Shown here piece by piece: positions 452-22,659 of a stretch of DNA of 32,000 nucleotides. Each line of letters begins with the position of its first letter. Within the stretch, counting starts at the first letter, position 1. Under the pieces are notes generated by a model. The model did not search any database, had not been told where the DNA came from, and saw nothing but the letters and a program-made list of their open reading frames with translations. The stretch spans positions 995,636 through 1,027,635 of the forward strand of contig JAWAHN010000001.1 of the NCBI GenBank assembly GCA_038889235.1, in the 5' to 3' direction. A program made the position numbers and the translations under genes. This stretch comes from Candidatus Jordarchaeales archaeon. GTDB lineage: Archaea > Asgardarchaeota > Jordiarchaeia > Jordiarchaeales > Freyrarchaeaceae.

Positions 452-1044
452 ATGTCGAAAGAACTTATCTACAAAGTAATTCTCGCAGGGGACGGAGACG
501 GGCTGGTGTATTCCTCTAACTGAGACACCAACCCGCCGGAACTGTAGGAAAGACCAGTCTAATCTCTCAGTACATTAGTGGAAAATTCCAAGTCGAGTAC
601 AAGAAGACTATACATGGGTAGAATTACTACCCGTGGGTTAAAGGCATCGATATATTCTCGAAAATACTTAAGGTAGGTGACTCTGCAGTTAAACTAGTAA
701 TTTGGGACCTTGGAGGGCAACCTCACTTTAAACATGTCCGAAGTAGTTTCTATCAGGGCGCTATGGGCGCCATGCTTGTTTACGACATAACGCGCCGCTC
801 CACGTTCGAAAATTTAGAAAACTGGAGGAAAGAAATGCTGAAAAACACGAAAGAAGAACCAGTCACTATAGTTATAGGGAACAAAGTTGATCTTGCGCAC
901 TTGCGCGAAGTAAGAACAGAGGATGGAAAAAAATATGCCAAAGAGATAAACGCTCCTTTTTTTGAAACATCCGCAAAGGACGGCAAGAACGTTGAGGCCG
1001 CCTTTGAGACGTTAGTCAAAATGATCTTAGAAAGGAAAAAATGA
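452..1044 (+). CDS. Ras/Rab-like small GTPase, intron-interrupted: join(452..497,542..611,642..1044), 172 aa
   Basis: SD-like aaaaggaggt precedes ATG 452. The joined translation is MSKELIYKVILAGDGAVGKTSLISQYISGKFQVEYKKTIGIDIFSKILKVGDSAVKLVIWDLGGQPHFKHVRSSFYQGAMGAMLVYDITRRSTFENLENWRKEMLKNTKEEPVTIVIGNKVDLAHLREVRTEDGKKYAKEINAPFFETSAKDGKNVEAAFETLVKMILERKK. It has P-loop GDGAVGKT, WDLGG, NKVD and ETSAK motifs. The exons total 519 nt (173 codons). Confidence 0.88.
498..541 (+). other. Predicted BHB-type intron 1 (44 nt) in the P-loop codons of the small GTPase mRNA
   Basis: Hairpin CGGGCUGGUGU/ACACCAACCCG (499-509/525-535) has one mismatch. Helix CGG/CCG (493-495/536-538) is followed by 5' bulge AG|A (496-498), with 3' cut AA|C (540-542). 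Removal gives GGA GCT GTA GGA AAG ACC = GAVGKT. The 44-nt length breaks frame and contains an in-frame TGA. The central helix has 3 bp plus a mismatch. Confidence 0.8.
612..641 (+). other. Predicted BHB-type intron 2 (30 nt) in the switch-I codons of the small GTPase mRNA
   Basis: Hairpin CAUGGGUAG AAUUA CUACCCGUG (613-635). Four-bp helix GACU/GGUU (606-609/636-639). 5' bulge AU|A (610-612) and 3' bulge AA|A (640-642). Contains in-frame TAG at 619. Removal gives KKTI-GIDIF. Confidence 0.8.
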
Positions 1045-1183
1045 TATATTTTGTCTTTTTCCTATATCACAGAAGATAGGTTTACACAGTCTTCCTTATC
1101 GTCTTTAGGAGAACGCTTAAAAATTGGTTACCTTACGTATTCTTGTAAACGCCCGCCAGCTAGCGACTCTTGGAGGCTTTTAG

Positions 1184-2128
1184 TTGGGGCGAACTGTTGT
1201 AGTATTGGATCCAATACATGCCAGCGGAATCGAACTGATACAGAAAGCAGGGTTTAACGTTATCGAGGCTTACGACTCTCCACCAAATGCTGTAGAAGAA
1301 TTTATCAAAAACGCTGACGTCGTTATAGTTAGAAGTAGAACTAAGGTTACTCGTTCTCTAATAGAGAAAGCACCACATTTAAAATTAATAGCGCGATGTG
1401 GAGTAGGCCTTGATAACATTGACTTAAAGGCCGCCGAGGAACGCGGAATATGTGTAATTAATTCCCCTGAATCATCCGCCGTTTCTGTCGCAGAGTTGAC
1501 TATAGGCCTCATATTATCTCTTCTCAGAATGATCCCCCTTGCAGATCGTTCCATGAAAGACGGAAAGTGGCTTAAAAAAGAACTTGAGGGCACCCAATTT
1601 TATGGAAAAACATTAGGGATAATAGGGTTTGGAAGAATAGGGCAAGCTGTCGCAGAACGCGCGTTAGCTTTCGGAGCAAAAATTATTGCGTATGATGTCG
1701 ATGAAAGCAAGGCATCCATCGCTAAAAAGATGGGCATTACTTTTGTCTCCGGTCCAGGATCCTTAGAATTTTTACTGAGAAATTCCGACATAGTATCCTT
1801 GCATGTTCCATTGAGTGAAGAAACTCGTAAACTAATAGGTCCGCGGGAGCTGGAATTAATGAAGCCAGGCTCTTATCTGGTTAACACAGCGCGTGGAGGA
1901 CTTATCGACGAAGAAGCACTCTACCAAGCGTTAAAGAGTGGGAAACTTGCAGGAGCAGCGTTAGATGTTTTCAGTGAAGAACCACCGAAAAATAAGGACC
2001 TCATTTCCCTACCTAACGTGATCTGCACTCCCCACATAGGGGCTTCTACCTACGAGTGCCAGCTGGCGAACGCTGTTGAAATAGCCCAAAAAATCGTCGA
2101 TTTTTTCAAAAGTGAGCGGAACGCATAA
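1184..2128 (+). CDS. serA: D-3-phosphoglycerate dehydrogenase / 2-hydroxyacid dehydrogenase family protein
   Basis: Contains the Rossmann motif GIIGFGRIGQAVAERA, NTARGGLIDEEAL, ALDVFSEEPP and PHIGAST. TTG start has ggagg upstream. Confidence 0.85.
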   Translation: MGRTVVVLDPIHASGIELIQKAGFNVIEAYDSPPNAVEEFIKNADVVIVRSRTKVTRSLIEKAPHLKLIARCGVGLDNIDLKAAEERGICVINSPESSAVSVAELTIGLILSLLRMIPLADRSMKDGKWLKKELEGTQFYGKTLGIIGFGRIGQAVAERALAFGAKIIAYDVDESKASIAKKMGITFVSGPGSLEFLLRNSDIVSLHVPLSEETRKLIGPRELELMKPGSYLVNTARGGLIDEEALYQALKSGKLAGAALDVFSEEPPKNKDLISLPNVICTPHIGASTYECQLANAVEIAQKIVDFFKSERNA

Positions 2129-2142
2129 ACGCCTTTAGGTTA

Positions 2143-2625
2143 TCAGGAAAGTCTTTCTAGGATTACATGTGCCTCCGTTGACAAAACGCCCTCTATCTGA
2201 GATATTTTCTTCAAGAAACTGTTAAGTTTGTTCCTGTTGACTTCCGCAATTAAATCAATCTCTCCTGTTACTCTGAAAATTCGCGTTGCACCTGCTTCTG
2301 CAATCTTCTTGTAAGCGTTTTCTCTCTCATGCGGGTTAACTTTTATCAGAACAAAGGCTGAGATATCCGCTTCACCCAAAGCACTTAGCCCCTTTTCTGT
2401 CACGTCTATAAATCCTCTCCCCGTCCTTATGTATCCTTTTTCCCTCAATTTCTTTAAATGGGCATTTAATGCCTGTCTGGTAATTCCAAGCTCTCTAGAA
2501 ATTTCAGTTTGAGACTTATATGTAGTACAGACCGAAATTGGTTTTCCATCGAAAACAAGCTTCTTCAGTATCTGAATTTGTTTATCAGTAAGTCCCTCCC
2601 CTTCCTTCATTAGGGGTTCCTCCAA
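2143..2625 (-). CDS. Transcriptional regulator, winged HTH plus Lrp/AsnC-like ligand-binding domain
   Basis: HTH SQTEISRELGITRQALNAHLKKLREKGYI followed by a RAM-like AFVLIKVNPHERENAYKKI...GEIDLIAEV domain. Confidence 0.7.
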   Translation of the reverse strand: MEEPLMKEGEGLTDKQIQILKKLVFDGKPISVCTTYKSQTEISRELGITRQALNAHLKKLREKGYIRTGRGFIDVTEKGLSALGEADISAFVLIKVNPHERENAYKKIAEAGATRIFRVTGEIDLIAEVNRNKLNSFLKKISQIEGVLSTEAHVILERLS

Positions 2626-2723
2626 GAAACATTTTTTATGACCCGAGTGATTTTAATTTTGTTATGGAGCACAAAATTATTATTTTTCCGTTTTTGAACT
2701 GAGGATAAGGAGAGCGATAAATT

Positions 2724-3371
2724 TTGCATGTAGAGCGTGTTCGCATCCCCTCTGGAACTATTACATTAGAAGGTGAAATAGGAAAACCAGAAAAATTTAA
2801 CGGAAAAATTGCGGCTGTTATATGCCACCCCCACCCGTTGTTTGGGGGGACTATGCATAACAACGTAGTAAGCGCCTTATTCTACACTTTACCCGAAAAT
2901 GGAATAGTAGCCTTGCGTTTTAACTTCAGGGGAGTAGACGGGTCCCAAGGAGAATACGAAAACGGAATAGGTGAAAAAGAAGATGTTAATTCAGCAATAA
3001 ACTACCTCATTAAAGAACTATCTCCACGATTGAAGGAAGTAGCCGTAATAGGATACTCATTTGGAGCATGGGTTGGTTTATCGGCTGCCGTTGAAAATAA
3101 ACTAGCAAAAATCATGATTGCAATAGCTCCACCTGTAAAACTGTTCAATTTTGATTACATTAAAAACGTAAAAAAACCCAAGTTTTTCATACTAGGCGAT
3201 CTGGACGACTTTGCCCCACTAGAAGACTTCCTGACGTTTTACGAAAAAGTATCTCCTCCTAAAAATTACGCAATATTGCAAGGAGCGGATCACTTTTTCT
3301 ACGGTTACGAGTTAGAACTAGCAACTATTGTAACTAACTTATTGAAAACGGGCGTTAATAAAAAGAAATAA
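2724..3371 (+). CDS. Alpha/beta hydrolase family protein
   Basis: ICHPHPLFGGTMHNNVV, FNFRGVDGSQGEYENG, nucleophile elbow GYSFGAW and the GADHFFYG histidine motif. Confidence 0.8.
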   Translation: MHVERVRIPSGTITLEGEIGKPEKFNGKIAAVICHPHPLFGGTMHNNVVSALFYTLPENGIVALRFNFRGVDGSQGEYENGIGEKEDVNSAINYLIKELSPRLKEVAVIGYSFGAWVGLSAAVENKLAKIMIAIAPPVKLFNFDYIKNVKKPKFFILGDLDDFAPLEDFLTFYEKVSPPKNYAILQGADHFFYGYELELATIVTNLLKTGVNKKK

Positions 3372-3401
3372 AAAGAATTAGAGACAAATCACACCTTTCC
3401 C

Positions 3402-3824
3402 CTACTTTTTAGCCTTCTTTCCCTCTTCCTTTTGCTCCCCTGTCTCTTTCTTCTCTTCTTCAGCTTCAAGCTCTTCTAGAGGAACCGGCGGCGGCGTCGT
3501 CAACATAGTCCAACCTATCCATGCAGCTATACCGAGTATCGCTGTTATTGCCAGCCAAATGGGAACACCCACAGCCAGAAACTTTGGCGGAGTGGGAATC
3601 CACTGAAGTATCGCTGGTGCAGTGAGCGAGTAGATTAAGCTTTCAATGGCGTGCGAACCTAGGTAAATTACTAAGATGTTGTTCGACAAAAGTAGTGGAA
3701 TCACGCTAGACTCTACCTGTGACCCAATCCAACAAGCATAGTATAATGCCCAGTATGTGTACCAGACTATCAGTATCACTGAAACTATTAGAATTATCCC
3801 TCCATAAACCTTGTCCTTTGACAT
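3402..3824 (-). CDS. Membrane protein with several predicted TM helices and a charged Glu/Lys-rich C-terminus
   Basis: Hydrophobic segments (IILIVSVILIVWYTYWALYYACW, LAVGVPIWLAITAILGIAAWIGW) with tail EELEAEEEKKETGEQKEEGKKAKK. Confidence 0.55.
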   Translation of the reverse strand: MSKDKVYGGIILIVSVILIVWYTYWALYYACWIGSQVESSVIPLLLSNNILVIYLGSHAIESLIYSLTAPAILQWIPTPPKFLAVGVPIWLAITAILGIAAWIGWTMLTTPPPVPLEELEAEEEKKETGEQKEEGKKAKK

Positions 3825-3909
3825 TTACATCTCTCCTCTTGCTTTTGTCTCTAACTTGTACATCTCTTTTATTAGTTTTTTGGGTTTAAAGCTCCAGCCC
3901 CTCCTTGCT

Positions 3910-4467
3910 TCAAAATAAAAATCTATCATCCCCCACTTTAGGAAGCGGGGGAAGTTCACCCTCCTTAGGAATTATTATTTTTTCACCTTTCGCACCCACC
4001 GCTCTTGCTTTACCCTCAAGCGCCATCGCAGCCGTCAGGGCGCACACTACAGCATCCGTCTCGTGCTTGTTTCGGGGTTTGTTCAAGAAAATAACAAATT
4101 TTTCTAGATCTTCCTCCTTCACCTTCAAAATCTTGTAAAACGCGCCGGGGAAAACTTCTATAACATTTCCTAATCTAGCTTTTAATCGCATAGCTCTAAA
4201 AACAAGCTCTGAGATAAAATTAGGTGGAAAAACACGTATACCCATACGTATTAACTCTTTATCAGCTTCCCTATAACCTTGCCGAAAGGTTAACGGTGCA
4301 TCTATCGCTATTAGCTGAGGACAGACACGTAAACAAGCACTTATTATTTCAAGGTCTGTGTATACACTAAAAACTCTAACAAACCCGTCACTCCATACGG
4401 CAAAACCACTAGGATTCAAAGGTTTAGCAGCAAGATCTATCCCCACGGTCACTACCAAAGTCTTCAC
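3910..4467 (-). CDS. DUF429-like protein (predicted RNase H-like nuclease fold)
   Basis: N-terminal VGIDLAAKPLNPSGFAVW, AIDAPLTF, and KHETDAVVCALTAAM near the C-terminus. Confidence 0.65.
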   Translation of the reverse strand: MKTLVVTVGIDLAAKPLNPSGFAVWSDGFVRVFSVYTDLEIISACLRVCPQLIAIDAPLTFRQGYREADKELIRMGIRVFPPNFISELVFRAMRLKARLGNVIEVFPGAFYKILKVKEEDLEKFVIFLNKPRNKHETDAVVCALTAAMALEGKARAVGAKGEKIIIPKEGELPPLPKVGDDRFLF

Positions 4468-4497
4468 CTATAAGAAAAGAAACGAGTTGCAATCAGT

Positions 4498-4665
4498 TTA
4501 AAGCCGTCCCTGCTGACCAACAGGTTTACCTAAAATAACCCTCCGCACATAGTTCTTTCTATTCCTAACTCTCGGAATAACGGGCGGCCTTTCTTTCCTA
4601 GGAACCTTCGGCGTCTGGTTTCTAACCTTTCCCGCTTTAGTTAAGCTTCCATGTGACCCAGGCAC
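4498..4665 (-). CDS. Small ribosomal subunit protein eS30 (S30e), 55 aa, GTG start; absent from the ORF track
   Basis: Translation [55 protein letters not shown] matches the S30e pattern ([17 protein letters not shown]...PR-RNR-xY-x-R). Confidence 0.9.
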
Positions 4666-4804
4666 CTATCTTCCACCCCTTTCCCGTTTTTCATCCTAAT
4701 TTTCCCAGGAAACTAATTAAATATTTTTCTACAATCTTGTTGCATTTTTCTTTCGAGAAATATCGATAAATGCAGATGAAAGAATAAATAAAAACAAATG
4801 AGTG

Positions 4805-6208
4805 CTATTTCTTCTTTATTTTCCTCGCTATAACTTCAGCAACTAATGTTATTTCACTCCATGTTGGGCAGCTTATCGGCGCATAGCACGTCTCAAGCCA
4901 CTCTAACTGTTCTACATTCATGTTTGCTTGCATAGCTGCAGCTATTATGTTTATCTTCTGGTGTATGTCTTCGTATCCGACAATTTGTGCTCCAAGTATT
5001 CTGCCTTTTTCATCCGCCATCATTTTTATCTTTAACGGCTTCCCGCCGGGCATGTATTCTGGCTTGCTCGAATACGTCATTTTGCCTACTATTGGTTTTA
5101 GTCCTGCTTTTTCCAAAGTCTCTGTAAGAGGCCCTACAGCCGCCACTTCTACCCCAAAAACTTTCGTTATCCTTGTAAGCAAGATTCCTTTAGGCATCTC
5201 GGCATCTCCGCCAGCAGCGTTTATTCCGGCGACTTTGCCTTGCCTAACTGCTATGGTGCCCATTCCTACTGCTATCGGTTGACCAGTTACAAAGTCGACA
5301 TACTCTGTACAGTCTCCGGCGGCATATATTCCTTCGACGTTAGTTCGTGCACGTGAGTCGACTTTTATGTATTTCGTGCTTCCCAGCGCCACTCCAGCTT
5401 TAACTGCTAACTCCGTGTTAGGTCTTACTCCTGCAGACACTACGACGAAGTCTGTGGGTATTACTTCCTCCTCTCCGGTCGTCCTATCCTTTAAAACGGC
5501 TTTTTCGGCTTTATCTTCTCCTATTAGTTCTGTTACGGCAGTATTTGTGTATATCTTTACCCCGTGCTCTTTAAGAGCGTTCTCCACCATGTCTGACATA
5601 TCGGCGTCTACCATTAATGGGAGGACACTAGGAAGGAATTCCACGAGAGTTACGTCCACTCCGAGCTCAACTAAGGCCTCTGTTGTTTCTACACCTATAA
5701 GTCCTGCACCTATAACAACACACTTTTTCCCTTTTTTTGCCGCCTCATGGATGGCCATGGCGTCATCTATAGTTCTCAGAGAGTAAACGTTCTTTTTTCC
5801 TTCTATCCCCTTTATAGGCGGAAAAGCAGGCCTCGACCCGGTAGCTATCACCAGAGCATCATACTCTAATTTTTTCTCTTCCTTGCTTCGTAAGTCTTTG
5901 ACTGTTACTGTTCTATTGGAAACGTCTATGTCTGTGGCTTCTGTCTCTAAAAGCAGGTTCATCTTCCCAAAACTTGAATACCATCCTGCGTCATGAGTTA
6001 TTAAGTTCGTGAACTCTGGAATATATTTCGAAATGGTGTATGGAAGACCGCACCGGGAGTATTCTGGGTATTTTTCTTTGGTTACTAATGTTATTTCCGC
6101 CTTCCTGTCAGTTTTTCTCGCCCATATGCCTGCCGTAGTTCCAGCTGCTCCCGCTCCAATAATAACTATTTTCGTCAATCTTCGTTTCCTCCCAATTTTT
6201 AAATTCAA
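4805..6208 (-). CDS. FAD-dependent pyridine nucleotide-disulfide oxidoreductase (CoA-disulfide reductase/NADH oxidase family)
   Basis: GAGAAGTTAG FAD-binding motif, redox EYSRCGLPY, VVIGAGLIGVE, and GIYAAGDCTEYVD. Confidence 0.85.
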   Translation of the reverse strand: MNLKIGRKRRLTKIVIIGAGAAGTTAGIWARKTDRKAEITLVTKEKYPEYSRCGLPYTISKYIPEFTNLITHDAGWYSSFGKMNLLLETEATDIDVSNRTVTVKDLRSKEEKKLEYDALVIATGSRPAFPPIKGIEGKKNVYSLRTIDDAMAIHEAAKKGKKCVVIGAGLIGVETTEALVELGVDVTLVEFLPSVLPLMVDADMSDMVENALKEHGVKIYTNTAVTELIGEDKAEKAVLKDRTTGEEEVIPTDFVVVSAGVRPNTELAVKAGVALGSTKYIKVDSRARTNVEGIYAAGDCTEYVDFVTGQPIAVGMGTIAVRQGKVAGINAAGGDAEMPKGILLTRITKVFGVEVAAVGPLTETLEKAGLKPIVGKMTYSSKPEYMPGGKPLKIKMMADEKGRILGAQIVGYEDIHQKINIIAAAMQANMNVEQLEWLETCYAPISCPTWSEITLVAEVIARKIKKK

Positions 6209-6406
6209 GGTTTCATCGATAGCATTTAACTAAAAAATGTTATGTTTCTCTTTTCCACTCAAGTAGATGGCGAAAAATAGCTAACTTAAATTATCAACTA
6301 TAACTTGCCGAACTTTGTGCAAGTCTTCATACATCAAGGGAAAAATATAATATTGCTGGCTAGTTTTTCATTCATGTTTCCCTTGAGTGGTTGTCTCCCT
6401 ATCAGT

Positions 6407-7612
6407 TTACTTTAGACCTTTAGCTGAAACTATCTTGATTATGTCTCTGTCTTTTAATTCATAATCCTCTGGAAGGCGCTGTTTGGTTCGTGCATCTATG
6501 GCATAAATGAAGGTTTCTCCTAGTTCTGTGTGGATTTTGTAAGCTAACTCTTTCACAGTAGTCCCTTTTGGAACGAGCAACGCGTCTGGAAGAACGTTCC
6601 CTTTATGGTCTGTAAGCTTGTTTACGTCCTCTATAGGGTAAACTGTTATCATCCTGAGTGTTTCGAAAACTGCTTTGTTTAGTGTTTCTTGGACTCCAGT
6701 TGAACCGTAAACGCGGAGTATCTCTTCCCTTATCTTTTCTAATAATTCTTTCTGTTTTTCAGTTATTCTTTCAGAAAGTAGTCTAAAATCACTGTCTCCA
6801 GGAAGATACTCTATTATTTTCTCTTTTACGAGGCGTTTTAAAAAGTACTCTGCAAGTGCACTAGCAGGAACAAAATCTATATTCTGCTTTCTAAGTCTCT
6901 CTACGTTCTTCCTGGCGGTTTTTTTGTCTATCTTGTTTAGGCAGATAACAATAGGTTTTGCCATAACCCTTAATTGGTGAGCGAAAAGGTACAACTCCTC
7001 ATCACTCCATCTACTCGGCTTCGCCGTGTCAAAACCGCTAACTTTAATCGCTGCTTTTATGTGTGATCGTTTTATAGAAAGACCAGCAAGTTTCTCGGTG
7101 AGTACCTCTTCTAGTGGTTTAGCCCCTGACTCAACCTGTTTAACTATTTTTTGCCAGTCCCTCGCAATCACTTGTTTAGTCCACATGTCTATTTCTCTCT
7201 CAAGGAACTCTATGTCTTTAACAGGATCCCATGCTCCCTCCTCCAAAATTCTACCTTCAGCATCGGTACTGCCTGACGCGTCAACCACATGAATTAACAC
7301 ATCAGCCCTTCTAAGTTCGTCGAGGAATTGGTTTCCAAGTCCTCTGCCTTTCCATGCATCTGGAACTAATCCAGCTACATCCAGCAGCTTTACTGGAATG
7401 AAGCGATTGCCTTTTATACAAATGGAGTTCCGAGGGTTATCCTTCACCCCTAACTCTTCGCAAACGCACTTAACTCTAACATGCCCCGTTCCAGGCTGAG
7501 GCTCTATAGTTGTAAAAGGATAATCCGCAACCTTATACTCCGTGCCACTTGCCGCATTAAGAAACGTAGTTTTTCCAGAGTTAGGCTTTCCCACTATACC
7601 TATTAGCATCAC
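6407..7612 (-). CDS. YchF/OBG-related archaeal GTPase with C-terminal TGS domain
   Basis: G1 GKPNSGKTT, G3 DVAG, G4 NKID, and C-terminal TGS-like GNVLPDALLVPKGTTVKELAYKIHTELGETFIYAIDA...LKDRDIIKIVSA. Confidence 0.85.
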   Translation of the reverse strand: MMLIGIVGKPNSGKTTFLNAASGTEYKVADYPFTTIEPQPGTGHVRVKCVCEELGVKDNPRNSICIKGNRFIPVKLLDVAGLVPDAWKGRGLGNQFLDELRRADVLIHVVDASGSTDAEGRILEEGAWDPVKDIEFLEREIDMWTKQVIARDWQKIVKQVESGAKPLEEVLTEKLAGLSIKRSHIKAAIKVSGFDTAKPSRWSDEELYLFAHQLRVMAKPIVICLNKIDKKTARKNVERLRKQNIDFVPASALAEYFLKRLVKEKIIEYLPGDSDFRLLSERITEKQKELLEKIREEILRVYGSTGVQETLNKAVFETLRMITVYPIEDVNKLTDHKGNVLPDALLVPKGTTVKELAYKIHTELGETFIYAIDARTKQRLPEDYELKDRDIIKIVSAKGLK

Positions 7613-7715
7613 TTAACCTCCCCTTTCTCCCTAAAAATTCTCACCGAAGGGCCCAAGGTCACCAGGTTTCTTGGCTGAAAACTCCTTTCTCAAGCCAAGA
7701 TACAGCACTTTCAAT

Positions 7716-9920: not shown

Positions 9921-11105
9921 CTAGAAGCATCTGTGAATTACTCCTACGCCTCCCTCTTGATACTCTTTCTTTGTAACCCACATCTTCTGGAACGTCCTTA
10001 ACGAAGCTAATATTGATCCTCCGATCCAGACACTATATTGTCTCTCGGGCGGCGCAATTATCTTTATTTCAACATTTTCTGGAACTAGCTCTGATATCTC
10101 TTTGTGCAATCTTTCCTTTAAACCTGGAAACATTGTTGAGCCGCCTGAAAGGACTATGTTAGCGTATAACTCTCTTCTCAAGTCGATGTCGCACTTCTTA
10201 ATAGTCTCGACTATTGCTTCATCTAGCGGCGGTGCATCTAATCCGATAACTCCCGGGTTGAAGAAGACTTCTGGTGCTAGGAATCTCTCGGCACCAATAG
10301 TAATAGTTTCGCCATCAGGTAGTACGTATGTTTTTTCTATGCCTGAAACTTTCTCTGCAAGTTTGAGCTCCTTTTCAGGGTCCAATGCCACATAGCAGAG
10401 CTTTTCCTTAATGTCCCTGACTATTTCTCTTTCAGCTGTTGAAACGAAGCTGTAACCGCGTTGTCTTAGGAGCCTTCGCAAGTACTCAGTTATATCCCTC
10501 CCTGCAAGATCTATCCTGGTAATGGCGTGTGTTAACGCGAAACCTTCATAGATTGGAACTATGTGTGTTACTCCATCTCCCGAGTCTACCACTAGACCCG
10601 TTGTCCTTCCAGACGCATAGAGCGAGAGAACAGCTTGCATTGCAACATATATAGCCGGTGTATTAAATGTTTCAAACATTATTTCAGCCATTTTTTCCCT
10701 GTTTTCACGCGGGTTCAGCGGCGGCTCCGTTAGTAATACAGGGTGCTCTGAAGGGTCGACTCTCAAGTCGTTGAAGAACGTGTAGTGCCAGATTTTTTCC
10801 ATAGCATCCCAATCTGTAACTACACCATGCTCTATTGGGTAAACTAACCTGAGTACTCCTCGCAGGTTAAGTGCCTCCTCTCCAATGTAATATTCTCTCG
10901 TGTAGTGTTCTACGTCCGTCATTATTGACGCATACTTCGGATATCCTATACAAGTTGGCCATACGGAACGAGGCTGATCCTCCCCTGCAAACCCATTCTT
11001 AGTTAACCCTGTTCCATTGTCTATTACTATAGGTTTCGCAGCAATCATTTCTTCTTCGCGTGCCATTTTCTCATATCTCCTAACATTTTTTAAAGGTCTC
11101 TTCAT
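9921..11105 (-). CDS. Actin-family protein closely resembling eukaryotic actin/lokiactin; true start may be the internal MAREEEM
   Basis: [142 protein letters not shown], and C-terminal HRCF. Confidence 0.97.
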
Positions 11106-15323: not shown

Positions 15324-15749
15324 TTACTCTGCAAAAACCTCTTTGATCTCCTTCACCGCATCTTCTATTATTCGTTCATACCTTCTCTCTTTATGTAGAA
15401 GGACCGATGCTGCATCAGCAATCCTCCGTTTAGCTGAAATCGGTAGTATAGCTGCCAGTATAAACCTTTTATTTGAGACCTCTATACTTTTGAATACAAT
15501 AATCCCATCGCTTGTTTCTATAGTTACTTGTTCTAGGTCTCCAAGTCCTATCTGATCTTTAACTCTAATGGCAGTCGCGTGAGCTAGACCAGCCATCGCG
15601 GCGATTACCTGTTTACTTTCAGGACCGCTCGCCTCAGCAACCACTAGTCCATCCTCCCTAGAAATGACACTCGCTGAAAAACCCCCCTTTTTGTTCATGT
15701 CCTCTAAAATTTTTGTTAATGTCGAAAGCTTATCTTTAGACATCAACAC
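15324..15749 (-). CDS. Roadblock/LC7 domain protein
   Basis: Roadblock fold pattern: LTKILEDM...GFSASVISREDGLVVAEASG...VIAAMAGLAHATAIRV...VTIETSDGIIVFKSI...FILAAILP. Confidence 0.75.
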   Translation of the reverse strand: MLMSKDKLSTLTKILEDMNKKGGFSASVISREDGLVVAEASGPESKQVIAAMAGLAHATAIRVKDQIGLGDLEQVTIETSDGIIVFKSIEVSNKRFILAAILPISAKRRIADAASVLLHKERRYERIIEDAVKEIKEVFAE

Positions 15750-15867
15750 CCACCCTTTTTGTAGGAGTCTTCTTTTAGTGCAATAATTTCTGTCCTCCCA
15801 AACATTTAAATCTAGTCTTTTTACCCTCCTTTTTCAAAGAACATTAAGTGCCTAACGGTGAAGAGTT

Positions 15868-16842
15868 TTGAAACTAAACTTTGTTATTCCTAAGGGCTCC
15901 CTTCAGGAAGCCACGCTGGCTTTGCTTAGACAGGCTGGATACGAGATAAAGGGAAGTGATAGGTCCTATAGGCCTTGGATAAACGACCCAGAAATAAACC
16001 TCAAAGTTCTCAGACCGCAAGAAATACCTACCTTCGTGGAATCAGGGGCTCATGACTTAGGAATCACCGGGATGGACTGGGTAGAAGAAACTTCAGCAGA
16101 CGTCGTAATATTGTCAAACCTAGCTTATGGTAAAGTAAAAATAGTTTTAGCTGTTCCAAACTACTGGACTCATATAAATTCCCTTTCAGATTTAATACGT
16201 ACCTTCGCTGAAAATGGAAAGCCTATACGTATAGCAACAGAATATATAAATATCACAGCTCGGTACGTATCATCAAACCCCGAATATAAATCACGTTTCG
16301 GCTCGCTAACCCCTGAGGTCATAACCCCCTGGTACAGATATGGAGAAAACCCTAACGTAAAAATACTGCTTTCCTTTGGCGCTACAGAGGCTAAGCCGCC
16401 TGAGGATGCGGAAGCAATAGTCGATAATACCGAAACCGGGACCACTATTCTCTCTAACAACCTTAAGATAATCGAAGAAATATGTGAATCTCAAGCGGTT
16501 CTCATATCTAACAGAGATGCTTTAAGCCACCCTTGGAAAAGAGAAAAGATAAAAGATGTAATGACTCTTCTCGAGGGTGCGGTTGACGCGAGAGAACGCT
16601 TGCACATATTTATGAATGTGAAGGAAGAAAACTTACAAGCGCTTTTGAAAATACTCCCCGCACTCAAAAAGCCGACAATATCTCCACTTGCTGGGGAAGA
16701 AGGATGGTACGCCATTAATACCGTTATTCGCAAAGATGAGTTTCTGAGAATAATACCGTACCTCAGGCAATTAGCGCAAGGACTAGTGGTTTACGAGCCG
16801 CGGCAAGTCCTCCCACTCGAAAAAATACAGAACAAGTTCTAA
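15868..16842 (+). CDS. hisG: ATP phosphoribosyltransferase
   Basis: FVIPKGSLQEATLALLRQAGYEI, LRPQEIPTFVESGAHDLGITGMDWVEE, and VDNTETGTTILSNNLKII. Confidence 0.92.
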   Translation: MKLNFVIPKGSLQEATLALLRQAGYEIKGSDRSYRPWINDPEINLKVLRPQEIPTFVESGAHDLGITGMDWVEETSADVVILSNLAYGKVKIVLAVPNYWTHINSLSDLIRTFAENGKPIRIATEYINITARYVSSNPEYKSRFGSLTPEVITPWYRYGENPNVKILLSFGATEAKPPEDAEAIVDNTETGTTILSNNLKIIEEICESQAVLISNRDALSHPWKREKIKDVMTLLEGAVDARERLHIFMNVKEENLQALLKILPALKKPTISPLAGEEGWYAINTVIRKDEFLRIIPYLRQLAQGLVVYEPRQVLPLEKIQNKF

Positions 16843-16912
16843 ATGTCTTTCAGGAAAAGTTTAAATTCCCTCTATCCAGCTAGTATTAGGGATTTCTTCT
16901 ACTACTTTTGAG

Positions 16913-19585
16913 GTGTCTAGCGTGTCCTTGAGGTTTACCAAAAGAATCCACTCCATACGGTTTAGTGTGCTTTCTCCAGACGAAATAAGGCGTATGTCCG
17001 CTACACGAATAATTACGCCCGACACGTATGATGAGGACGGTACCCCCATAGAGACTGGACTTATGGACGAACGTTTGGGGACTGTAGAACCTGGGCGGCG
17101 TTGTAAGCTTTGCGGTAACCCCATAGGTGAATGTATCGGCCACTTCGGGCATATCGAACTCGTCCGCCCGGTGATACACGTAGGCTTTGTTAAAATTCTT
17201 CATAAAGTTCTAAGAGCTACATGCCGACGTTGTTGCAGACTTCTGCTTCCAGAGGAACAGATAAACGCCTTTTTAATAGAAATGGAAAAGTACGAGGCTG
17301 AAACCGGAGAATTAAGTGACGAAATAGCTGAAGAGGTATTCCGCCGCGCATCCAGAACCACGATATGCCCTCACTGCGGCGAAACCCAACGCAAAGTTAG
17401 GCTTGAAAAACCAACTACGTTTTATGAGGAAACAGAGACTGGATCGATAAGGCTCACGCCGAGTGATGTACGCGAACGGTGCGAACGTGTACCTGACACG
17501 GATTGCAAACTCCTCGGAATAAATCCAAAGTACGCCCGTCCTGAGTGGATGGTACTTACAGTTCTCCCCGTGCCACCGGTCTGTGTCAGACCAAGTATAA
17601 CCCTTGAATCAGGTGTTCGTTCAGAAGATGATTTAACTCATAAGCTCGTCGATATAATCAGGATAAATCAACGTTTAAGGGAGAACATAGAAGCGGGGGC
17701 TCCACAACTTATTGTTGAAGACTTATGGGAGTTGTTGCAATATCACGTAACCACTTACTTTGACAATGAAATCTCCGGCATACCTCCAGCCCGTCATCGT
17801 TCAGGAAGAGTTCTTAGAACTCTTTCCCAGAGATTGAAAGGCAAAGAAGGGCGTTTCAGGAGCAATTTATCCGGAAAACGCGTAGACTTCTCAGCTAGGA
17901 CGGTGATATCTCCTGACCCAAACATCGGGATTAATGAAGTAGGAGTGCCTATCGAGGTAGCTAAAATCCTGACCATACCCGAAAGGGTAACGGAACTCAA
18001 CATCGAAGAAATGAAAGAACTTGTTATGAGAGGACCTGACGAACACCCTGGAGCAAACTACATAATTAGAAGCGACGGGAAACGAATAGACTTGAGGTTT
18101 GTCAAAAACAGGCAAAAAGTCGCTGAAGAACTTACTCCCGGATGTATAGTTGAACGCCACCTTAACGACGGAGATATAGTACTTTTCAATAGACAACCGT
18201 CCCTCCACAGAATGAGTATCATGGCACATGAAGTTAGAGTTATGCCCTACAAGACGTTTAGGTTAAACCTCTGTGTGTGTCCACCTTACAATGCCGACTT
18301 TGATGGGGACGAGATGAACCTCCACGTACCGCAATCAGAGGAAGCTAGAGTAGAAGCATACGTACTTATGAGAGTTCAAGAACATATCCTAAGCCCACGT
18401 TACGGAGGTCCAATCATAGGAGGGCTCCAGGACTTCATTACATCTGCATACCTTTTAACCAGAAAACAGACATTACTCACTAAAGAAGAAGCTTGTGAAC
18501 TCGCTCTAGCTGCTGGAATAACCGAGCTTCCTCCACCAGCAGTAACAGAACCAGTTCCTCTTTGGACTGGAAAACAAATTTTCAGTTTGACCCTACCTAA
18601 GGGGCTTACTGCACGTTTCAAATCAAAGCTGTGCAAACACTGTGATACATGCCGCAAGGATGAGTGTCCTCACGATGCATACGTGGTAGTTATCGACGGA
18701 GTTCTTCAGAAGGGTGTCATAGACAAAGCGGCTTTCGGGGCAGGCGTCCCCGAAAGTCTTCTTCACAAAATAGCAAGAGATTTCGGCACCGATGCTGCAA
18801 GGCAATTCCTAGATTCAGTAACACGAATGTTAATCAGGTACATTACGAACAAGGGCTTCACCTTAGGTCTAGATGACATGGAAATACCTGAAGAAGCGGT
18901 TCAACGCATAAACGAAATACTAGAGGAAGGAGAGCGCAGAGTTAACGAACTAATAGAGACCTACAGGAGAGGCGAGCTTGAAGCTTTACCGGGACGTACC
19001 ATAGAAGAAAGTCTTGAAATGTTAATTATGCAAGAACTCAACAATGTTAGAGACAAAGCTGGTGAAATCGCCAGCGAATATCTAGGTCCAAACAACCATG
19101 CAGTAATAATGGCGTTGACAGGTGCACGCGGCACCATGCTTAACCTTGCAATGATGGCTGCATGTGTAGGGCAACAATCAGTTAGAGGGCAACGTATACA
19201 TAGAGGATATCGAGGAAGAACTTTACCACACTTCAAAAAAGGCGACCTGAGCGCTAAATCAAGAGGCTTTGTAGCTTCCCACTACAGGAAAGGATTAGAC
19301 CCAATAGAGTTCTTCTTCCACGCGATGGGTGGACGAGAGGGCTTGGTAGACACTGCAGTAAAAACGTCGCAATCCGGATACCTACAACGCAGGCTCATTA
19401 ACGCTCTTCAAGATGTAAAGGTCGAATATGACGGCACGGTAAGAGACTCCACAGGTCGTATCATACAATTCAAATACGGAGAAGACTTAGTTGACCCAAC
19501 TAAAAGTTGGTATGGTAAAGCAGTCAACATTGACACAATAATTGATGAATACATATTGCAGCATTCTAAATTATCCAAAAAATGA
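16913..19585 (+). CDS. rpoA1: DNA-directed RNA polymerase subunit A' (Rpo1N)
   Basis: Zinc motif CKLCGNPIGECIGHFGH, LSGKRVDFSARTVISPDPN, catalytic PYNADFDGDEMNLHVPQ, and bridge helix region FFHAMGGREGLVDTAVKTSQSGYLQRRL. Confidence 0.97.
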   Translation: MSSVSLRFTKRIHSIRFSVLSPDEIRRMSATRIITPDTYDEDGTPIETGLMDERLGTVEPGRRCKLCGNPIGECIGHFGHIELVRPVIHVGFVKILHKVLRATCRRCCRLLLPEEQINAFLIEMEKYEAETGELSDEIAEEVFRRASRTTICPHCGETQRKVRLEKPTTFYEETETGSIRLTPSDVRERCERVPDTDCKLLGINPKYARPEWMVLTVLPVPPVCVRPSITLESGVRSEDDLTHKLVDIIRINQRLRENIEAGAPQLIVEDLWELLQYHVTTYFDNEISGIPPARHRSGRVLRTLSQRLKGKEGRFRSNLSGKRVDFSARTVISPDPNIGINEVGVPIEVAKILTIPERVTELNIEEMKELVMRGPDEHPGANYIIRSDGKRIDLRFVKNRQKVAEELTPGCIVERHLNDGDIVLFNRQPSLHRMSIMAHEVRVMPYKTFRLNLCVCPPYNADFDGDEMNLHVPQSEEARVEAYVLMRVQEHILSPRYGGPIIGGLQDFITSAYLLTRKQTLLTKEEACELALAAGITELPPPAVTEPVPLWTGKQIFSLTLPKGLTARFKSKLCKHCDTCRKDECPHDAYVVVIDGVLQKGVIDKAAFGAGVPESLLHKIARDFGTDAARQFLDSVTRMLIRYITNKGFTLGLDDMEIPEEAVQRINEILEEGERRVNELIETYRRGELEALPGRTIEESLEMLIMQELNNVRDKAGEIASEYLGPNNHAVIMALTGARGTMLNLAMMAACVGQQSVRGQRIHRGYRGRTLPHFKKGDLSAKSRGFVASHYRKGLDPIEFFFHAMGGREGLVDTAVKTSQSGYLQRRLINALQDVKVEYDGTVRDSTGRIIQFKYGEDLVDPTKSWYGKAVNIDTIIDEYILQHSKLSKK

Positions 19586-19657
19586 CAAATAAATAAAAAC
19601 CTCAAAATTATTTTTCAATTAAACTTTTTCTAGTGTTGCAACGTATTTATCCGTTTG

Positions 19658-20554
19658 CTATCTTAGCTCTTTTTCAAGGGCCTGAGCTATTAGGGGGGCT
19701 ACGCTAACCTGACTTACTGGGCTAGGAATAGTATCTGTGGCGATTACGTGTTCTGCTCCCGCTTTGTATATTTTCTTTAACGCGTTATCAACAAGAATAG
19801 CGTGCGTGCAAGCAGCGATTATTGTTTTGGCATGCATATTTTTGAGTAACTGAATTGTTTTTACAAGGGTCCCTCCTGTTGAAATTATGTCATCCACTAT
19901 GATAACATCTCTTCCTTGGACTTGAAGCTGGCGTACGCCTATTTCTACTTCCGTCGAACTTATCCTCTTTTTCTCTAGAACATCGTAATCCGTGCAGAGT
20001 ACTGACGCCACAACTTTTGCCCACTGTTCAGATTCTTCATCGGGCCCTATTACAAGAGGCTCTTCCATTTTGAAGTTCTTCATTATGTATTGTGCCAGCA
20101 GGGGCATAGCGGTAAGGTTCTCAGCGGGTATCTTAAATATCTCACTTACGCTCCCTACTCGGTGCAAGTGCATATCTATCGTTATAACTTTATCTGTTCC
20201 TGTCTTCTCAATAAGAGAAGCTACTGTTTTGAGACTTAATGCCTCCCCCTTGTTAAACCGTTGGTCCTGCCTCGAGTAAGGAAAATATGGTATCACACTC
20301 AATATTCTTTTAGCTCCTAAGTCCCTTAAAGCATCCACTAGGAGGAAGTACTCTATGAGGTGTTCGTCAGGGGTATGGTGCATCGAATGTATTACTGCAA
20401 CATGATACCCTTCGACGTCACCTTCCACCCTAACGTATTTTTCTCCGTCGGGAAATTTCTTGTAGTCGCAATCTATGAATGGCGCCTGAAGCATTTTTGC
20501 GACCTTAAGCGCTAAGACCTGTGATGTAGAGCCTCCCACTATTGCAAGCTTCAT
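19658..20554 (-). CDS. prs: Ribose-phosphate pyrophosphokinase
   Basis: RILSVIPYFPYSRQDQRF, VITIDMHLHR, and PRPP-binding VIIVDDIISTGGTLVKT. Confidence 0.93.
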   Translation of the reverse strand: MKLAIVGGSTSQVLALKVAKMLQAPFIDCDYKKFPDGEKYVRVEGDVEGYHVAVIHSMHHTPDEHLIEYFLLVDALRDLGAKRILSVIPYFPYSRQDQRFNKGEALSLKTVASLIEKTGTDKVITIDMHLHRVGSVSEIFKIPAENLTAMPLLAQYIMKNFKMEEPLVIGPDEESEQWAKVVASVLCTDYDVLEKKRISSTEVEIGVRQLQVQGRDVIIVDDIISTGGTLVKTIQLLKNMHAKTIIAACTHAILVDNALKKIYKAGAEHVIATDTIPSPVSQVSVAPLIAQALEKELR

Positions 20555-20662
20555 TTTTATCTCCTTCCTTTACCTAAGGCTGATGAACGCTTCCTTCTTT
20601 ATAAGTCATCGATATCTTTTTAAAGGTTTAACCTTAGTTAGGGGCTCTGAGGGGAGTTATGT

Positions 20663-21214
20663 TTGGCTTGGACTATTTGGCTCTTCGGTCTACCCGGCTC
20701 TGGTAAAAGCACTATTGCTCACGAGCTGCAGGCTATACTAAAGGAGCGAGGTATTAATGCGCAAATTCTCTCGACAGACATTCTAAGAAAGGTTGTAACT
20801 CCCAAACCAACATATTCGGAAGAAGAACGAGAGATCGTTTATGGCACTCTGGTCTTTATCGCCCGTTTGCTTAACGATAATGGTGTTAACGTCATAATTG
20901 ATGCCACGGCTAATAGGAATGCTTACAGGGAAAGAGGAAAAAAAGAAATCAAAAACATAATTTTCGCTTATGTTAAATGCCCCCTAGAAGTTTGCATACA
21001 ACGCGAAGCAACAAGGCAGGAAACTTACGGTGCACCTAGGAGAATATATGAAAAAGGTTTGACTGGGGAGAGCAAAACCGTTCCGGGTTTAGGTGTTCCA
21101 TTCGAGGAGCCTGAAAACCCGGATGTTGTTGTCGAGTCTGACAAGCTCTCCCCCAGAGAGTGCGCTTTAAAGATTCTCGACACTTTAATGAAAAGATTTT
21201 ATGCATCTAACTAG
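20663..21214 (+). CDS. APS kinase-like P-loop kinase
   Basis: IWLFGLPGSGKSTIAHELQ, LSTDILRK, and FAYVKCPLEVCIQR...ETYGAPRRIYEKG, resembling CysC. Confidence 0.7.
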   Translation: MAWTIWLFGLPGSGKSTIAHELQAILKERGINAQILSTDILRKVVTPKPTYSEEEREIVYGTLVFIARLLNDNGVNVIIDATANRNAYRERGKKEIKNIIFAYVKCPLEVCIQREATRQETYGAPRRIYEKGLTGESKTVPGLGVPFEEPENPDVVVESDKLSPRECALKILDTLMKRFYASN

Positions 21215-22293
21215 TAGCTCTTGAGATAGGAGTTCACTTCCTTTGGATTGAACTCTTCGCACTCAAGCACGTTGTTAATGAAGTTTAAGAGTTTTCTCCG
21301 TGTTTCTGGGGTAAGTGTTGGATACCATTGAGGGTGAGATATCACTGAGCCCCGCCAGGCATAAAATGGCTGAACCACTTTGAGGAGTTCTTCGTCTCCT
21401 GTTTTTTCGAGGTAATTCTCGTAAAATAGGTCGAAAAGTTTTTTAAATGGGTCTGCAAGGTGGCCGAAAGTAAGCACACTGAAGAATATGTAGTTTATAG
21501 TCATAGCGGTCACGTCGTCAGCTGGCTCTCCCCACTCACCTCTGCTTCTGTCTAAAAGCGTGAAATCCGTTCCCTCTCTAAAAAGAACGTTCCAAGGGTG
21601 GTAATCCCCGTGAACCACACTTAACCTGTGAGCACACTTTTTGAGTTTCCACCTCCACTCAACGCACTTTTTCTCGATCCTCAGTAAGTCTTCTTCCGTC
21701 GCATACGCGGGGTTAGGGGTATATGTGTCAAGCAGCCCCATGAGCCCCTCTCCGTGACCAACTAAGTCCCTTATTCTTCTAATGTAGATGTGAGGTGCGT
21801 CCTTTTTCTCTTTATGAATTTCCACCAGGTAGTTGGAGAGGGCTATTGCTCTATCGATATCTAACTGTCTCAATTTCTTCTCCTCAGAAAGCCTATCTAG
21901 GTCGAATTTGTACAAATTTCCCTCAGCGTACTCCATGAGAACGAAAAACTCTTCCACGTTCCCGACAGAAACTATCCCCCCTTCCCTGGTTACCCCTCCA
22001 CAGTCAAAGGAGCGAACATGCCTGGGAAGCTTATTGTACGTTTGGTGAGCCAGTAAAACAACTTGTGCTCTGTCCGGCATAAATTCGTGACCATAAGGTC
22101 CAGGAACAACAAAGCTCATAACCATCTTTTTTACTTCATTCCCCACCTTCGCCTCTATGAGGCGAGGAACACCGTAGCCTACTTCCTTTATGTCCTCTTT
22201 CTCTCCACCAAGTCTCTTAACATTCAACACCTCAACACTTTTTTCAAAGACTCGAGTAAGATATTCTTCAAGTTTCTCTTTTGAAATAGACAA
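21211..22293 (-). CDS. Phosphotransferase (aminoglycoside phosphotransferase/choline kinase-like fold)
   Basis: Brenner-type motif VVHGDYHPWNVLF followed by TLLDRSRGEWGEPADDV. Confidence 0.75.
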   Translation of the reverse strand: MSISKEKLEEYLTRVFEKSVEVLNVKRLGGEKEDIKEVGYGVPRLIEAKVGNEVKKMVMSFVVPGPYGHEFMPDRAQVVLLAHQTYNKLPRHVRSFDCGGVTREGGIVSVGNVEEFFVLMEYAEGNLYKFDLDRLSEEKKLRQLDIDRAIALSNYLVEIHKEKKDAPHIYIRRIRDLVGHGEGLMGLLDTYTPNPAYATEEDLLRIEKKCVEWRWKLKKCAHRLSVVHGDYHPWNVLFREGTDFTLLDRSRGEWGEPADDVTAMTINYIFFSVLTFGHLADPFKKLFDLFYENYLEKTGDEELLKVVQPFYAWRGSVISHPQWYPTLTPETRRKLLNFINNVLECEEFNPKEVNSYLKSY

Positions 22294-22481
22294 TGAAACT
22301 ACACCCCCTCAAAACCTGTAGTCACTTAACTCGGGTACTTTAATTGAGAAATACCTTTCGTTAAAAGCTTAATCGTTAAACGTGTGGTTTAATTTCTTCA
22401 AGAAAAGAAGAACGGAACACGCAAAGTTAAAATATTGTTTTCACTCTTCAAACACTCTAGAAGGGCGCCCGGGTCGCCTAG

Positions 22482-22502
22482 AAGAATTTCTACTTTGGGC
22501 AA
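22482..22502 (+). other. Predicted tRNA intron 1 (21 nt) in the D-loop
   Basis: Central helix GCCU/GGGC (22476-22479/22497-22500), bulges AG|A (22480-22482) and AA|U (22501-22503), outer pairs C22475-G22504 and U22474-G22505. The inner hairpin is weak. Boundaries could shift by a nucleotide or two. Confidence 0.7.
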
Positions 22503-22516
22503 TGGTAGGGCGGTGG

Positions 22517-22539
22517 AGCCCCTAAAAAAGGGCGCCGTA
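22517..22539 (+). other. Predicted tRNA intron 2 (23 nt) between positions 30 and 31
   Basis: Full hBHBh': outer GGG/CUC (22508-22510/22541-22543), central CGGU/GCCG (22511-22514/22534-22537), 5' bulge GG|A, 3' bulge UA|G, inner GCCC/GGGC (22518-22521/22530-22533). Confidence 0.85.
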
Positions 22540-22546
22540 GCTCGAG

Positions 22547-22577
22547 ATCTTTCCCAAAGAAATTTGGGGGAAGATAA
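22547..22577 (+). other. Predicted tRNA intron 3 (31 nt) at canonical position 37/38
   Basis: Hairpin AUCUUUCCC.../...GGGGGAAGAU capped by a GAAA loop. 3' bulge AA|A (22576-22578) abuts anticodon stem CCCAC. The central 4-bp helix is poor, so this is a relaxed motif. Excision gives loop CUCGAGA with a fully paired 5-bp stem. Confidence 0.75.
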
Positions 22578-22590
22578 ACCCACTGGCGGA

Positions 22591-22606
22591 TTCCGTATGG
22601 ACGCAA
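22591..22606 (+). other. Predicted tRNA intron 4 (16 nt) in the variable arm
   Basis: Inner UCC/GGA (22592-22594/22599-22601), central GCG/CGC (22586-22588/22602-22604), bulges GA|U and AA|G, outer U22584-A22609 and G22585-C22608. Excision leaves variable arm GGCGG-AGCAC-CCGCC. Confidence 0.6.
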
Positions 22607-22628
22607 GCACCCGCCGCGCGCGTTCGAA

Positions 22629-22659
22629 TGGAAAAGGGAGATTCACTCCCTCCCGGGCA
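22629..22659 (+). other. Predicted tRNA intron 5 (31 nt) in the T-loop (59/60)
   Basis: Outer T-stem GCGCG/CGCGC, 3' bulge CA|U (22658-22660), central UUCG/CGGG (22623-22626/22654-22657, two wobbles), 5' bulge AA|U (22627-22629), inner hairpin containing GGGAG-AUUCA-CUCCC. Confidence 0.88.

Follow-up and report, generated by a model that had tools for sequence, protein, structure and literature searches.

Short introns of the tRNA-splicing type in a tRNA-Ser gene and a Rab-like GTPase gene of an Asgard archaeon

According to a 2023 review, splicing by the tRNA endonuclease is on record for just two mRNAs of archaea, cbf5 and HVO_1309, with more predicted (PMC10485636), and a 2025 paper on the structure of the enzyme, EndA, cites the work on cbf5 only. 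The cbf5 pre-mRNA of Crenarchaeota (Watanabe 2002, Yoshinari 2006, Yokobori 2009, PMC2738675) has a relaxed form of the bulge-helix-bulge motif (BHB), cut by a hetero-oligomeric EndA between the second and third bulge residues (PMC2738675). Archaeal introns in general range from 11 to 175 nucleotides (nt) in length (PMC2738675). The EndA of Asgard archaea is of the (alpha-beta)2 form with an L1 loop, which is linked to the cleavage of relaxed motifs (PMC5829648), and two genes assigned to K01170 (EndA) are listed for one genome of the Atabeyarchaeia. Among tRNAs, the multi-intron genes of Thermoproteales have a stated maximum of three introns (Sugahara 2008, PMC4033280), while in Atabeyarchaeia and Freyarchaeia 92-95% of the tRNA genes contain introns, with up to four per gene in a supplementary table (PMC11291895). 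The DNA examined here is a stretch of 32,000 nt (the window) from a Candidatus Jordarchaeales archaeon (assembly GCA_038889235.1, contig JAWAHN010000001.1, positions 995,636 to 1,027,635); the Jordarchaeales are part of the Asgard kingdom Promethearchaeati. Seven short introns of the tRNA-splicing (BHB) type are confirmed in two of its genes, five in a gene for tRNA-Ser(CGA) and two in a gene for a Rab-like small GTPase, so that all seven introns proposed in an initial annotation of the sequence were recovered. It is very probable that both genes are interrupted by archaeal BHB introns, and that these are removed at the RNA level by the protein-only tRNA-splicing pathway, with EndA cutting and RtcB ligating. 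The boundaries, geometry, conservation and covariation of the introns are documented below. Standard gene finders miss both genes because of these short introns.

The kind of interruption is already known from cbf5, HVO_1309 and the multi-intron tRNAs, and the GTPase and tRNA-Ser(CGA) genes are new members of it. The GTPase gene resembles cbf5 in having a short intron in a protein gene, a relaxed BHB motif with the same cut register, a host with a hetero-oligomeric EndA (here according to the Asgard literature), a presence/absence polymorphism among relatives and mis-annotation by gene callers. It differs in its host, Jordarchaeales rather than Sulfolobales or Desulfurococcales, in encoding a eukaryotic signature protein, and in containing two introns 70 nt apart instead of one; in addition, the splicing of cbf5 is backed by cDNA and enzyme evidence, whereas the GTPase case is known from sequence comparison. 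With HVO_1309 of Haloferax volcanii (PMC7714728, PMC10485636), an mRNA is likewise a substrate of the tRNA-splicing endonuclease and its flanks are ligated, but the enzyme is of the alpha2 type (TSEN) according to the review (PMC10485636), while the introns described here lie within conserved codons and their removal is needed for the protein. Several BHB introns, most of them outside the canonical position (D-loop, 30/31, variable arm, T-loop), and invisibility or low scores with standard finders are shared with the tRNAs of Thermoproteales, Atabeyarchaeia and Freyarchaeia, the last of which belong to the same wider lineage as Jordarchaeia. The tRNA described here has five introns, conserved in four lineages, against the published maxima of three and four. 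A more distant analogy is HAC1/XBP1 (IRE1 with Trl1 or RtcB), in which, as would be the case here, a short intron is excised by proteins alone under the guidance of RNA structure, the ends are joined by a tRNA ligase, and the full protein arises only after splicing. The nuclease there is IRE1 and not EndA/TSEN, the motif consists of twin stem-loops and the process is stress-regulated, which leaves the likeness an analogy only. In the literature searched, which left most subscription journals outside its scope and from which absence is not proven, there was no earlier report of BHB/EndA-type introns in protein-coding genes of Asgard archaea, nor of a gene with two such mRNA introns or a tRNA with more than four.

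Two introns in the Rab-like GTPase gene

The GTPase gene begins with an ATG at 452, preceded by a Shine-Dalgarno-like motif (GGAGG) at 439-443. Its unspliced frame ends at a TGA at 524-526, after 24 codons, and the remainder of the Ras-family protein is found in other frames; the longest unspliced open reading frame (ORF), 763..1044, matches Pfam Ras at positions 74-161 only. Removal of intron A (coordinates in Table 1) restores the sequence GDGAVGKTSL, which aligns without gaps to intronless homologues, and removal of intron B restores YKKTIGIDIF, the alternative boundaries 613..642 giving an identical product. The spliced protein has 172 amino acids (aa), with an intact P-loop (GDG/AVGKT) and switch I (KTI/G), and matches Pfam Ras (PF00071) from position 1 to 161 of 162 (E = 2e-54). 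The features that define a Ras/Rab protein (the G1 P-loop, the G2 Thr, DxxGQ and a full-length match) are all present only after splicing. The product aligns gaplessly through both junctions to uninterrupted homologues of 61-66% identity that are annotated as Rab family GTPases of Freyarchaeota and Jordarchaeaceae; among named homologues, those of Freyarchaeota and Jordarchaeales are the closest. As in the cbf5 pre-mRNA, a conserved coding sequence is interrupted and the unspliced frame ends early.

Both introns can be folded around the junctions defined in this way. In intron A the central helix pairs C493-G495 with C536-G538, next to an A492/G539 mismatch, and the inner hairpin pairs 499-509 with 525-535. 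In intron B the central helix is formed by G606-T609 and G636-T639 (including two G-U pairs), followed by a 9-bp inner hairpin of 613-621 with 627-635, and an outer helix is lacking.

The locus is syntenic among relatives, with the gene order LysE, GTPase, 2-hydroxyacid dehydrogenase, Lrp/AsnC regulator and hydrolase. Counting the window, five lineages are represented: introns A and B occur in the loci L003/L004, L007/L008 and L019, and B alone in L005/L006, where intron A is absent precisely at the predicted junction and GDGAVGKTSL is uninterrupted. The first two exons are of fixed length throughout, while intron A measures 44, 54, 52, 55 or 0 nt and intron B 30, 31 or 32 nt. The frame downstream thus differs from genome to genome, and an intact protein is obtained only if the introns are taken out of the RNA. 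When the sequences are aligned, 90.6% of the cells of the intron A helices are paired, compared to 25-55% if the partners are slid, and six of the nine inner-helix pairs have changed on both sides; for intron B the values are 96.9% and 25-52%, with four pairs changed on both sides. Structure is kept while sequence and length drift, in the manner of a BHB intron, among the four to five sequences available per intron.

Every close homologue of the GTPase, at 77-97% identity, is a gene call truncated to 94-149 aa. Public annotations of the locus show no gene in L021 (9104..10001), and elsewhere C-terminal fragments of 94-149 aa or pairs of 41-aa and 144-aa pieces (L003 2001-2450, L005 1882-2435, L007 2001-2285). 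With the calls either truncated or absent, the full protein is missing from the protein databases for this clade.

Two forms of recoding might yield the same protein from the unspliced message: programmed frameshifting, or translational bypassing with a ribosome hop like that in gene 60 of phage T4. The codon GGA at 494-496, ahead of intron A, recurs at 538-540, ahead of the intron end, a hairpin follows the first GGA, and in L003 a hop from GGA to GGA gives the same protein as splicing. In the window, however, this hop gives GDGTVGKT, as against GDGAVGKT in the intronless orthologue, and the GGA repeat is explained by the near-palindromic central helix (ACGG with CCGG). Intron A has no stop after the take-off codon, the first one in frame being 9 codons later, and intron B has no matching codons, with ATA before the gap and none near 636-645. 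Matched codons together with an adjacent stop are found at neither intron. Frameshifting is unable to skip 30-55 nt that contain stop codons, and the same geometry is present in five tRNA introns, which are outside translation. Recoding of either type is extremely improbable as an explanation of the GTPase gene.

Five introns in the tRNA-Ser(CGA) gene

ARAGORN finds zero tRNAs in the raw 32-kb window, and Rfam gives no match in the window at the gathering threshold, nor in 22400..22750 at E <= 10. The segment 22467..22676 begins with GCCCGGG, ends with CCCGGGC-G-CCA and includes GCGCG-TTCGAA...CGCGC. Once five segments (I1 to I5, Table 1) are removed, 87 nt are left, which ARAGORN recognizes as tRNA-Ser(CGA) with a score of 121. 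This is a class II tRNA with perfect stems throughout, a long variable arm (stem GGCGG/CCGCC), the discriminator G73 and an encoded CCA, and the gene belongs among the multi-intron tRNAs, with the canonical position 37/38 and four non-canonical ones occupied. The boundaries of I2 are the only choice that yields a perfect anticodon stem (GTGGG/CCCAC). For I4, both 22606 and 22607 are possible ends, as each leaves a valid tRNA (ARAGORN 121.1 and 123.0), but only 22607 is in BHB register. Of three coordinate pairs given in the initial annotation, 498..541 and 22547..22577 were reproduced as they stood and 22591..22606 except for its end, which the BHB register moves to 22607 (17 nt and not 16, with a one-base ambiguity).

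Two other readings of this region were rejected. The motif GGGCGCC occurs twice in 22463..22680, which could suggest two tRNAs, or a nested or split one; the second copy is the 3' strand of I2, which mimics the 5' end of a tRNA. A tRNA-Gly(UCC), with GGCGG-ATTCCG as anticodon arm and a canonical intron, would be left with a variable region of 2 nt, and an exhaustive search that allowed up to two introns gave no acceptable arm.

A search of genome and metagenome collections with a pattern of exons 1 and 2 found three further versions of the gene, making four distinct sequences with the window: L010 (= L013), L017 and L012 (= L014, L018). The loci are syntenic (APH-like gene, tRNA, adenosine kinase, HD protein). 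Every version has five introns of 14-31 nt at the same positions (14-21 nt for I1), and becomes tRNA-Ser(CGA) upon their removal, with ARAGORN scores of 119.6-121.1. The mature tRNAs are 94-98% identical to that of the window, while the introns are mostly 41-78% identical, with the exception of I4 of L017 (94%). In the four sequences the central helix has 4/4 pairs in I2 and I5, 4/4 or 3/4 in I1, 3/4 in I4, and 2/4 or 3/4 in I3 (3/4 in L012). A compensatory change is seen in I5 of L010 and L017, where exon G57 is replaced by A57 and the intron strand of the central helix has T in place of C. In L012 the T stem has changed from GCGCG/CGCGC to GTGTG/CACAC.

The most divergent version (L012/L014/L018) comes from a record entitled 'Thermoproteota archaeon S9B3_HD70', yet it is syntenic with Jordarchaeales, and its adenosine kinase and HD protein are 77% and 72% identical, so the record may be misclassified. 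The nearest relatives of the tRNA locus and of the window proteins are named Candidatus Jordarchaeales or Freyarchaeota. A look-up of exact proteins also places the window on contig JAWALQ010000002.1 of assembly GCA_038886715.1.

For both genes, the interruptions could be a sign of decay, of inert insertions or of faulty assembly, with incidental BHB-like folds. Gene calls from NCBI, JGI and Logan consist of a truncated GTPase ORF of 94-149 aa or of nothing, and tRNA finders are blank at the tRNA locus. Against this, the same interruptions are present in independent NCBI, JGI, ENA and Logan assemblies and metagenomes. The short upstream exons of the GTPase are in frame and conserved at the protein level, with purifying selection on exons 1 and 2. 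In the tRNA, the stems are perfect and the exons 94-98% identical, while most of the introns have drifted; helices show compensatory changes, and variation in length is confined to the introns, the exons being constant. Pseudogenes or artefacts are a very improbable source of this pattern.

Table 1. Features of the interrupted genes and other genes of eukaryotic signature type in the window. Helix pairs are given as central (of 4)/inner/outer; a stroke within a bulge marks the cut.
Feature	Coordinates	Strand	Length (nt)	Helix pairs	Remarks
GTPase exon 1	452..497	+	46		ATG at 452; MSKELIYKVILAGDG + first base of Ala codon; 46 nt in all five lineages
mRNA intron A	498..541	+	44	3/4/1	P-loop codons, phase 1; relaxed BHB; bulges AG/A and AA/C
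GTPase exon 2	542..611	+	70		(A)VGKTSLISQYISGKFQVEYKKT + two bases of Ile codon; 70 nt and conserved at the protein level in all five lineages
mRNA intron B	612..641	+	30	4/9/0	switch-I codons, phase 2; HBh' motif; in-frame TAG; bulges AT/A and AA/A
GTPase exon 3	642..1044	+			includes TGA stop 1042-1044; Pfam Ras match of spliced product
tRNA-Ser(CGA) exon 1	22467..22481	+			positions 1-15; identical in all four orthologues
tRNA intron I1	22482..22502	+	21	4/3/3	D-loop, 15/16; central helix GCCT with GGGC, 4/4; 3-bp outer helix, weak inner helix; hBH / bulge-helix-loop type
tRNA exon 2	22503..22516	+			positions 16-30; from cloverleaf restoration
tRNA intron I2	22517..22539	+	23	4/4/3	30/31; strict hBHBh'
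tRNA exon 3	22540..22546	+			positions 31-37, anticodon CGA; from cloverleaf restoration
tRNA intron I3	22547..22577	+	31	2/6/1	canonical 37/38; stable hairpin from the 5' splice site; 3' bulge AA/A adjoining the anticodon stem
tRNA exon 4	22578..22590	+			position 38 to 5' strand of variable arm; from cloverleaf restoration
tRNA intron I4	22591..22607	+	17	3/3/1	variable-arm loop; 3 bp + conserved G/A mismatch in central helix
tRNA exon 5	22608..22628	+			rest of variable arm, 5' strand of T stem, T-loop up to 59; from cloverleaf restoration
tRNA intron I5	22629..22659	+	31	4/3/5	T-loop, 59/60; strict hBHBh'; outer helix is the 5-bp T stem
tRNA exon 6	22660..22676	+			position 60 to G73, encoded CCA at 22674-22676; CCA encoded in all four orthologues
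Actin gene	9921..11105				Pfam E = 1e-139
Roadblock/LC7 gene	15324..15749				
ARPC4-like protein gene	30636..31406				Pfam E = 3e-7

Common geometry and a putative splicing pathway

In all seven introns the boundaries were fixed independently of the motif, by restoration of the cloverleaf in the tRNA and by the reading frame in the GTPase gene. They were then compared to the BHB register, defined as a cut between the second and third bulge nucleotides at both sites, which is the register reported for cbf5 (PMC2738675), and the pairs of the central, inner and outer helices were counted. Six of the seven boundaries are in register, I3 being the exception. A random site of the same length has at least three central and at least three inner pairs with P = 0.007, or 0.053 if one base of slack is allowed at each end, and the chance of six boundaries out of seven in register is 8e-13, or 1.4e-7 with the one-base slack. 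By itself the motif is unspecific, with 629 hits on one strand of the window at the strictest setting tried (central helix 4/4, inner at least 5), so that the evidence lies in the coincidence of motif and exon restoration. Scans that combined the motif with the merging of ORFs proved unusable for counting hidden mRNA introns unless homology is added; the plus strand alone returned some 1300 hits, and stricter filters left 109 on both strands while missing intron A. Group I and group II self-splicing introns, whose ribozyme cores span hundreds of nucleotides, do not fit, with lengths of 17-44 nt here and no Rfam match in the window.

The introns fall into several structural types. I2 and I5 are strict, intron B is of the HBh' type, and intron A and I4 both have three Watson-Crick pairs followed by a purine-purine mismatch that adjoins the 3' bulge (A, 492/539, pairs GC GC CG + A/G; I4, 22585/22605, pairs GC CG GC + G/A). 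The mismatch is invariant in all orthologues; it may represent non-canonical pairing, either tolerated or required by the enzyme. The single geometry that the initial annotation proposed for mRNA and tRNA introns is borne out, even to the sharing of this odd variant, as are the departures from the strict motif that it listed: a central helix that is shortened or mismatched in A and I4 and nearly absent in I3, and little or no outer helix in the mRNA introns of the window. Its description of the introns as unusually small does not hold, since their lengths are ordinary within the archaeal range (PMC2738675). The minimum-energy fold is the BHB for intron B (z = -3.2), and it also reproduces the BHB of intron A and I5.

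Several observations weigh against the interpretation as BHB introns removed by EndA and RtcB. The weak case is I3, with only 2/4 central pairs; at minimum energy it folds as a plain hairpin, in which the 3' strand of the central helix is sequestered. The BHB of I4 differs from the minimum-energy fold (z = +1.25), and in I1 and I2 the minimum-energy folds are slightly off the BHB register. The covariation is based on just four to five related sequences per intron and is indicative rather than proof, although the slid controls and the length polymorphism agree with it. A collection of 5.8 billion proteins holds no full-length protein of the spliced type at 80% identity or more, only truncated calls. 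The case as a whole is built on sequence comparison and not on transcripts, and the part given to EndA and RtcB is modelled on the processing of archaeal tRNA, rRNA and cbf5.

A further possibility is that only the tRNA introns are BHB introns, and that the insertions in the mRNA are removed or tolerated in some other way, for example by another nuclease or as a regulatory structure by which the gene is silenced most of the time; a single shared system would then not apply. The weak outer helices of the two mRNA introns in the window (0 bp in B, 1 bp in A) and the three central pairs of intron A could be cited for it. But the HBh' form without an outer helix is the relaxed form known from cbf5 and from the non-canonical introns that (alpha-beta)2 EndA cuts in tRNAs (PMC2738675, PMC5829648), and the orthologues of intron A do possess a 3-bp outer helix. 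The cuts predicted from the bulge geometry are exactly the junctions that homology demands, and the mismatch variant is common to intron A and I4. A separate mechanism for the mRNA is improbable, and none of the observations calls for it. The most economical reading would be a single endonuclease and ligase system for mRNA and tRNA introns, because of the same geometry, the identical variant in A and I4 and the type of EndA found in Asgard archaea; cbf5 provides the precedent (PMC2738675, PMC10485636). The broad-specificity EndA suggested in the initial annotation fits the literature on the Asgard (alpha-beta)2 enzyme (PMC5829648).

In such a system, the fold of each intron with its flanking exons would have a pair of 3-nt bulges separated by about 4 bp. 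The intron hairpin would be on one side of them; the other side would carry an exon-exon helix, or be bare in the mRNA introns. EndA would cut between the second and third nucleotide of each bulge, and RtcB would ligate the exons and free a circular intron. Five such excisions would be required for tRNA-Ser(CGA), and in the GTPase mRNA two would rebuild the codons of the P-loop and switch I. The BHB of I2 occupies nucleotides 25-28 and 32-34, and the full outer helix of I3, which is the anticodon stem, forms only after I2 has been removed; this implies an order of splicing, I2 before I3.

Hidden introns elsewhere, genomic context and significance

A second tRNA invisible to ARAGORN is found in the sister assembly GCA_038821275.1, on the minus strand of L021 at 1774..1899, which places it about 7 kb upstream of the first window position. 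With a 31-nt intron at 29/30 and approximately 10-12 nt of the D-loop removed, it scores 121 as tRNA-Ser(UGA). The 31-nt intron has a central helix of 3/4 and a 10-bp inner helix. For the D-loop segment, the 12-nt CGCGAACGTAAA is the best of the candidates that agree with the BHB register, and the canonical position is without an intron. Brute-force combination of introns with ARAGORN gave a 'tRNA-Stop(tta)' at this locus, which was spurious, an intron hairpin having been taken for the anticodon arm, and manual parsing was used instead. Among protein genes, no other obviously split one was seen in the Pfam coverage of the 30 largest ORFs of the window and the gene calls of about 9 kb of flank (about 40 genes). 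The expectation of many more hidden introns genome-wide is supported for tRNAs only, by this second gene and by the rates in PMC11291895.

Supplementary Data 4 of PMC11291895 lists for Freyarchaeota a 183-nt 'Ser AGA' (Infernal 25.2) with three observed introns, and no Ser CGA. Its length is like that of the five-intron Ser(CGA) genes described here (182-210 nt), and it may be the same gene in a wrong parse.

Four genes of eukaryotic signature type are found in the 32 kb, and only the GTPase is interrupted (the others are given at the end of Table 1). The window also encodes genes for F420 and C1 metabolism. RNA polymerase subunit A' (Rpb1 domains 1-5) is encoded at 16913..19585 by a gene standing alone, flanked by hisG (15868..16842) and, on the opposite strand, by a PRPP synthetase gene (19658..20554); unlike in the usual archaeal rpoB-A'-A'' operon, rpoB and rpoA'' do not adjoin it. 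On the minus strand, 23255..27021 contains tandem paralogues for HD-domain + HD_assoc_2 proteins of 422 and 435 aa, about 27% identical, with a 397-aa ORF without Pfam match upstream of them; neighbouring genes here either touch or share a few bases.

By comparative evidence, the GTPase would represent a third gene family with mRNA splicing by the tRNA endonuclease. Within the literature searched, it is the first such case from Asgard archaea, and no earlier one has two introns. Splicing of this type, which is very rare among archaeal mRNAs, would in this way be extended to the closest relatives of eukaryotes. A broad-specificity EndA would permit short introns both in tRNA, with five in one gene, and in a protein gene of the same lineage. 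Unless annotation is BHB-aware and guided by homology, the tRNA complements and signature-protein inventories of Asgard metagenome-assembled genomes are under-counted. The predictions are specific, in the form of junction sequences and circular introns, and hence easily testable. It is possible, if rather unlikely, that in Jordarchaeia of hot springs EndA and RtcB form a true layer of mRNA splicing, which gates a Rab-like GTPase through two obligatory splices, perhaps with regulation like that of HAC1/XBP1 and perhaps in many genes. If so, protein-only mRNA splicing would act on genes of cell biology in the closest archaeal relatives of eukaryotes, and further targets would be among the genes that are now annotated as truncated or are not annotated.

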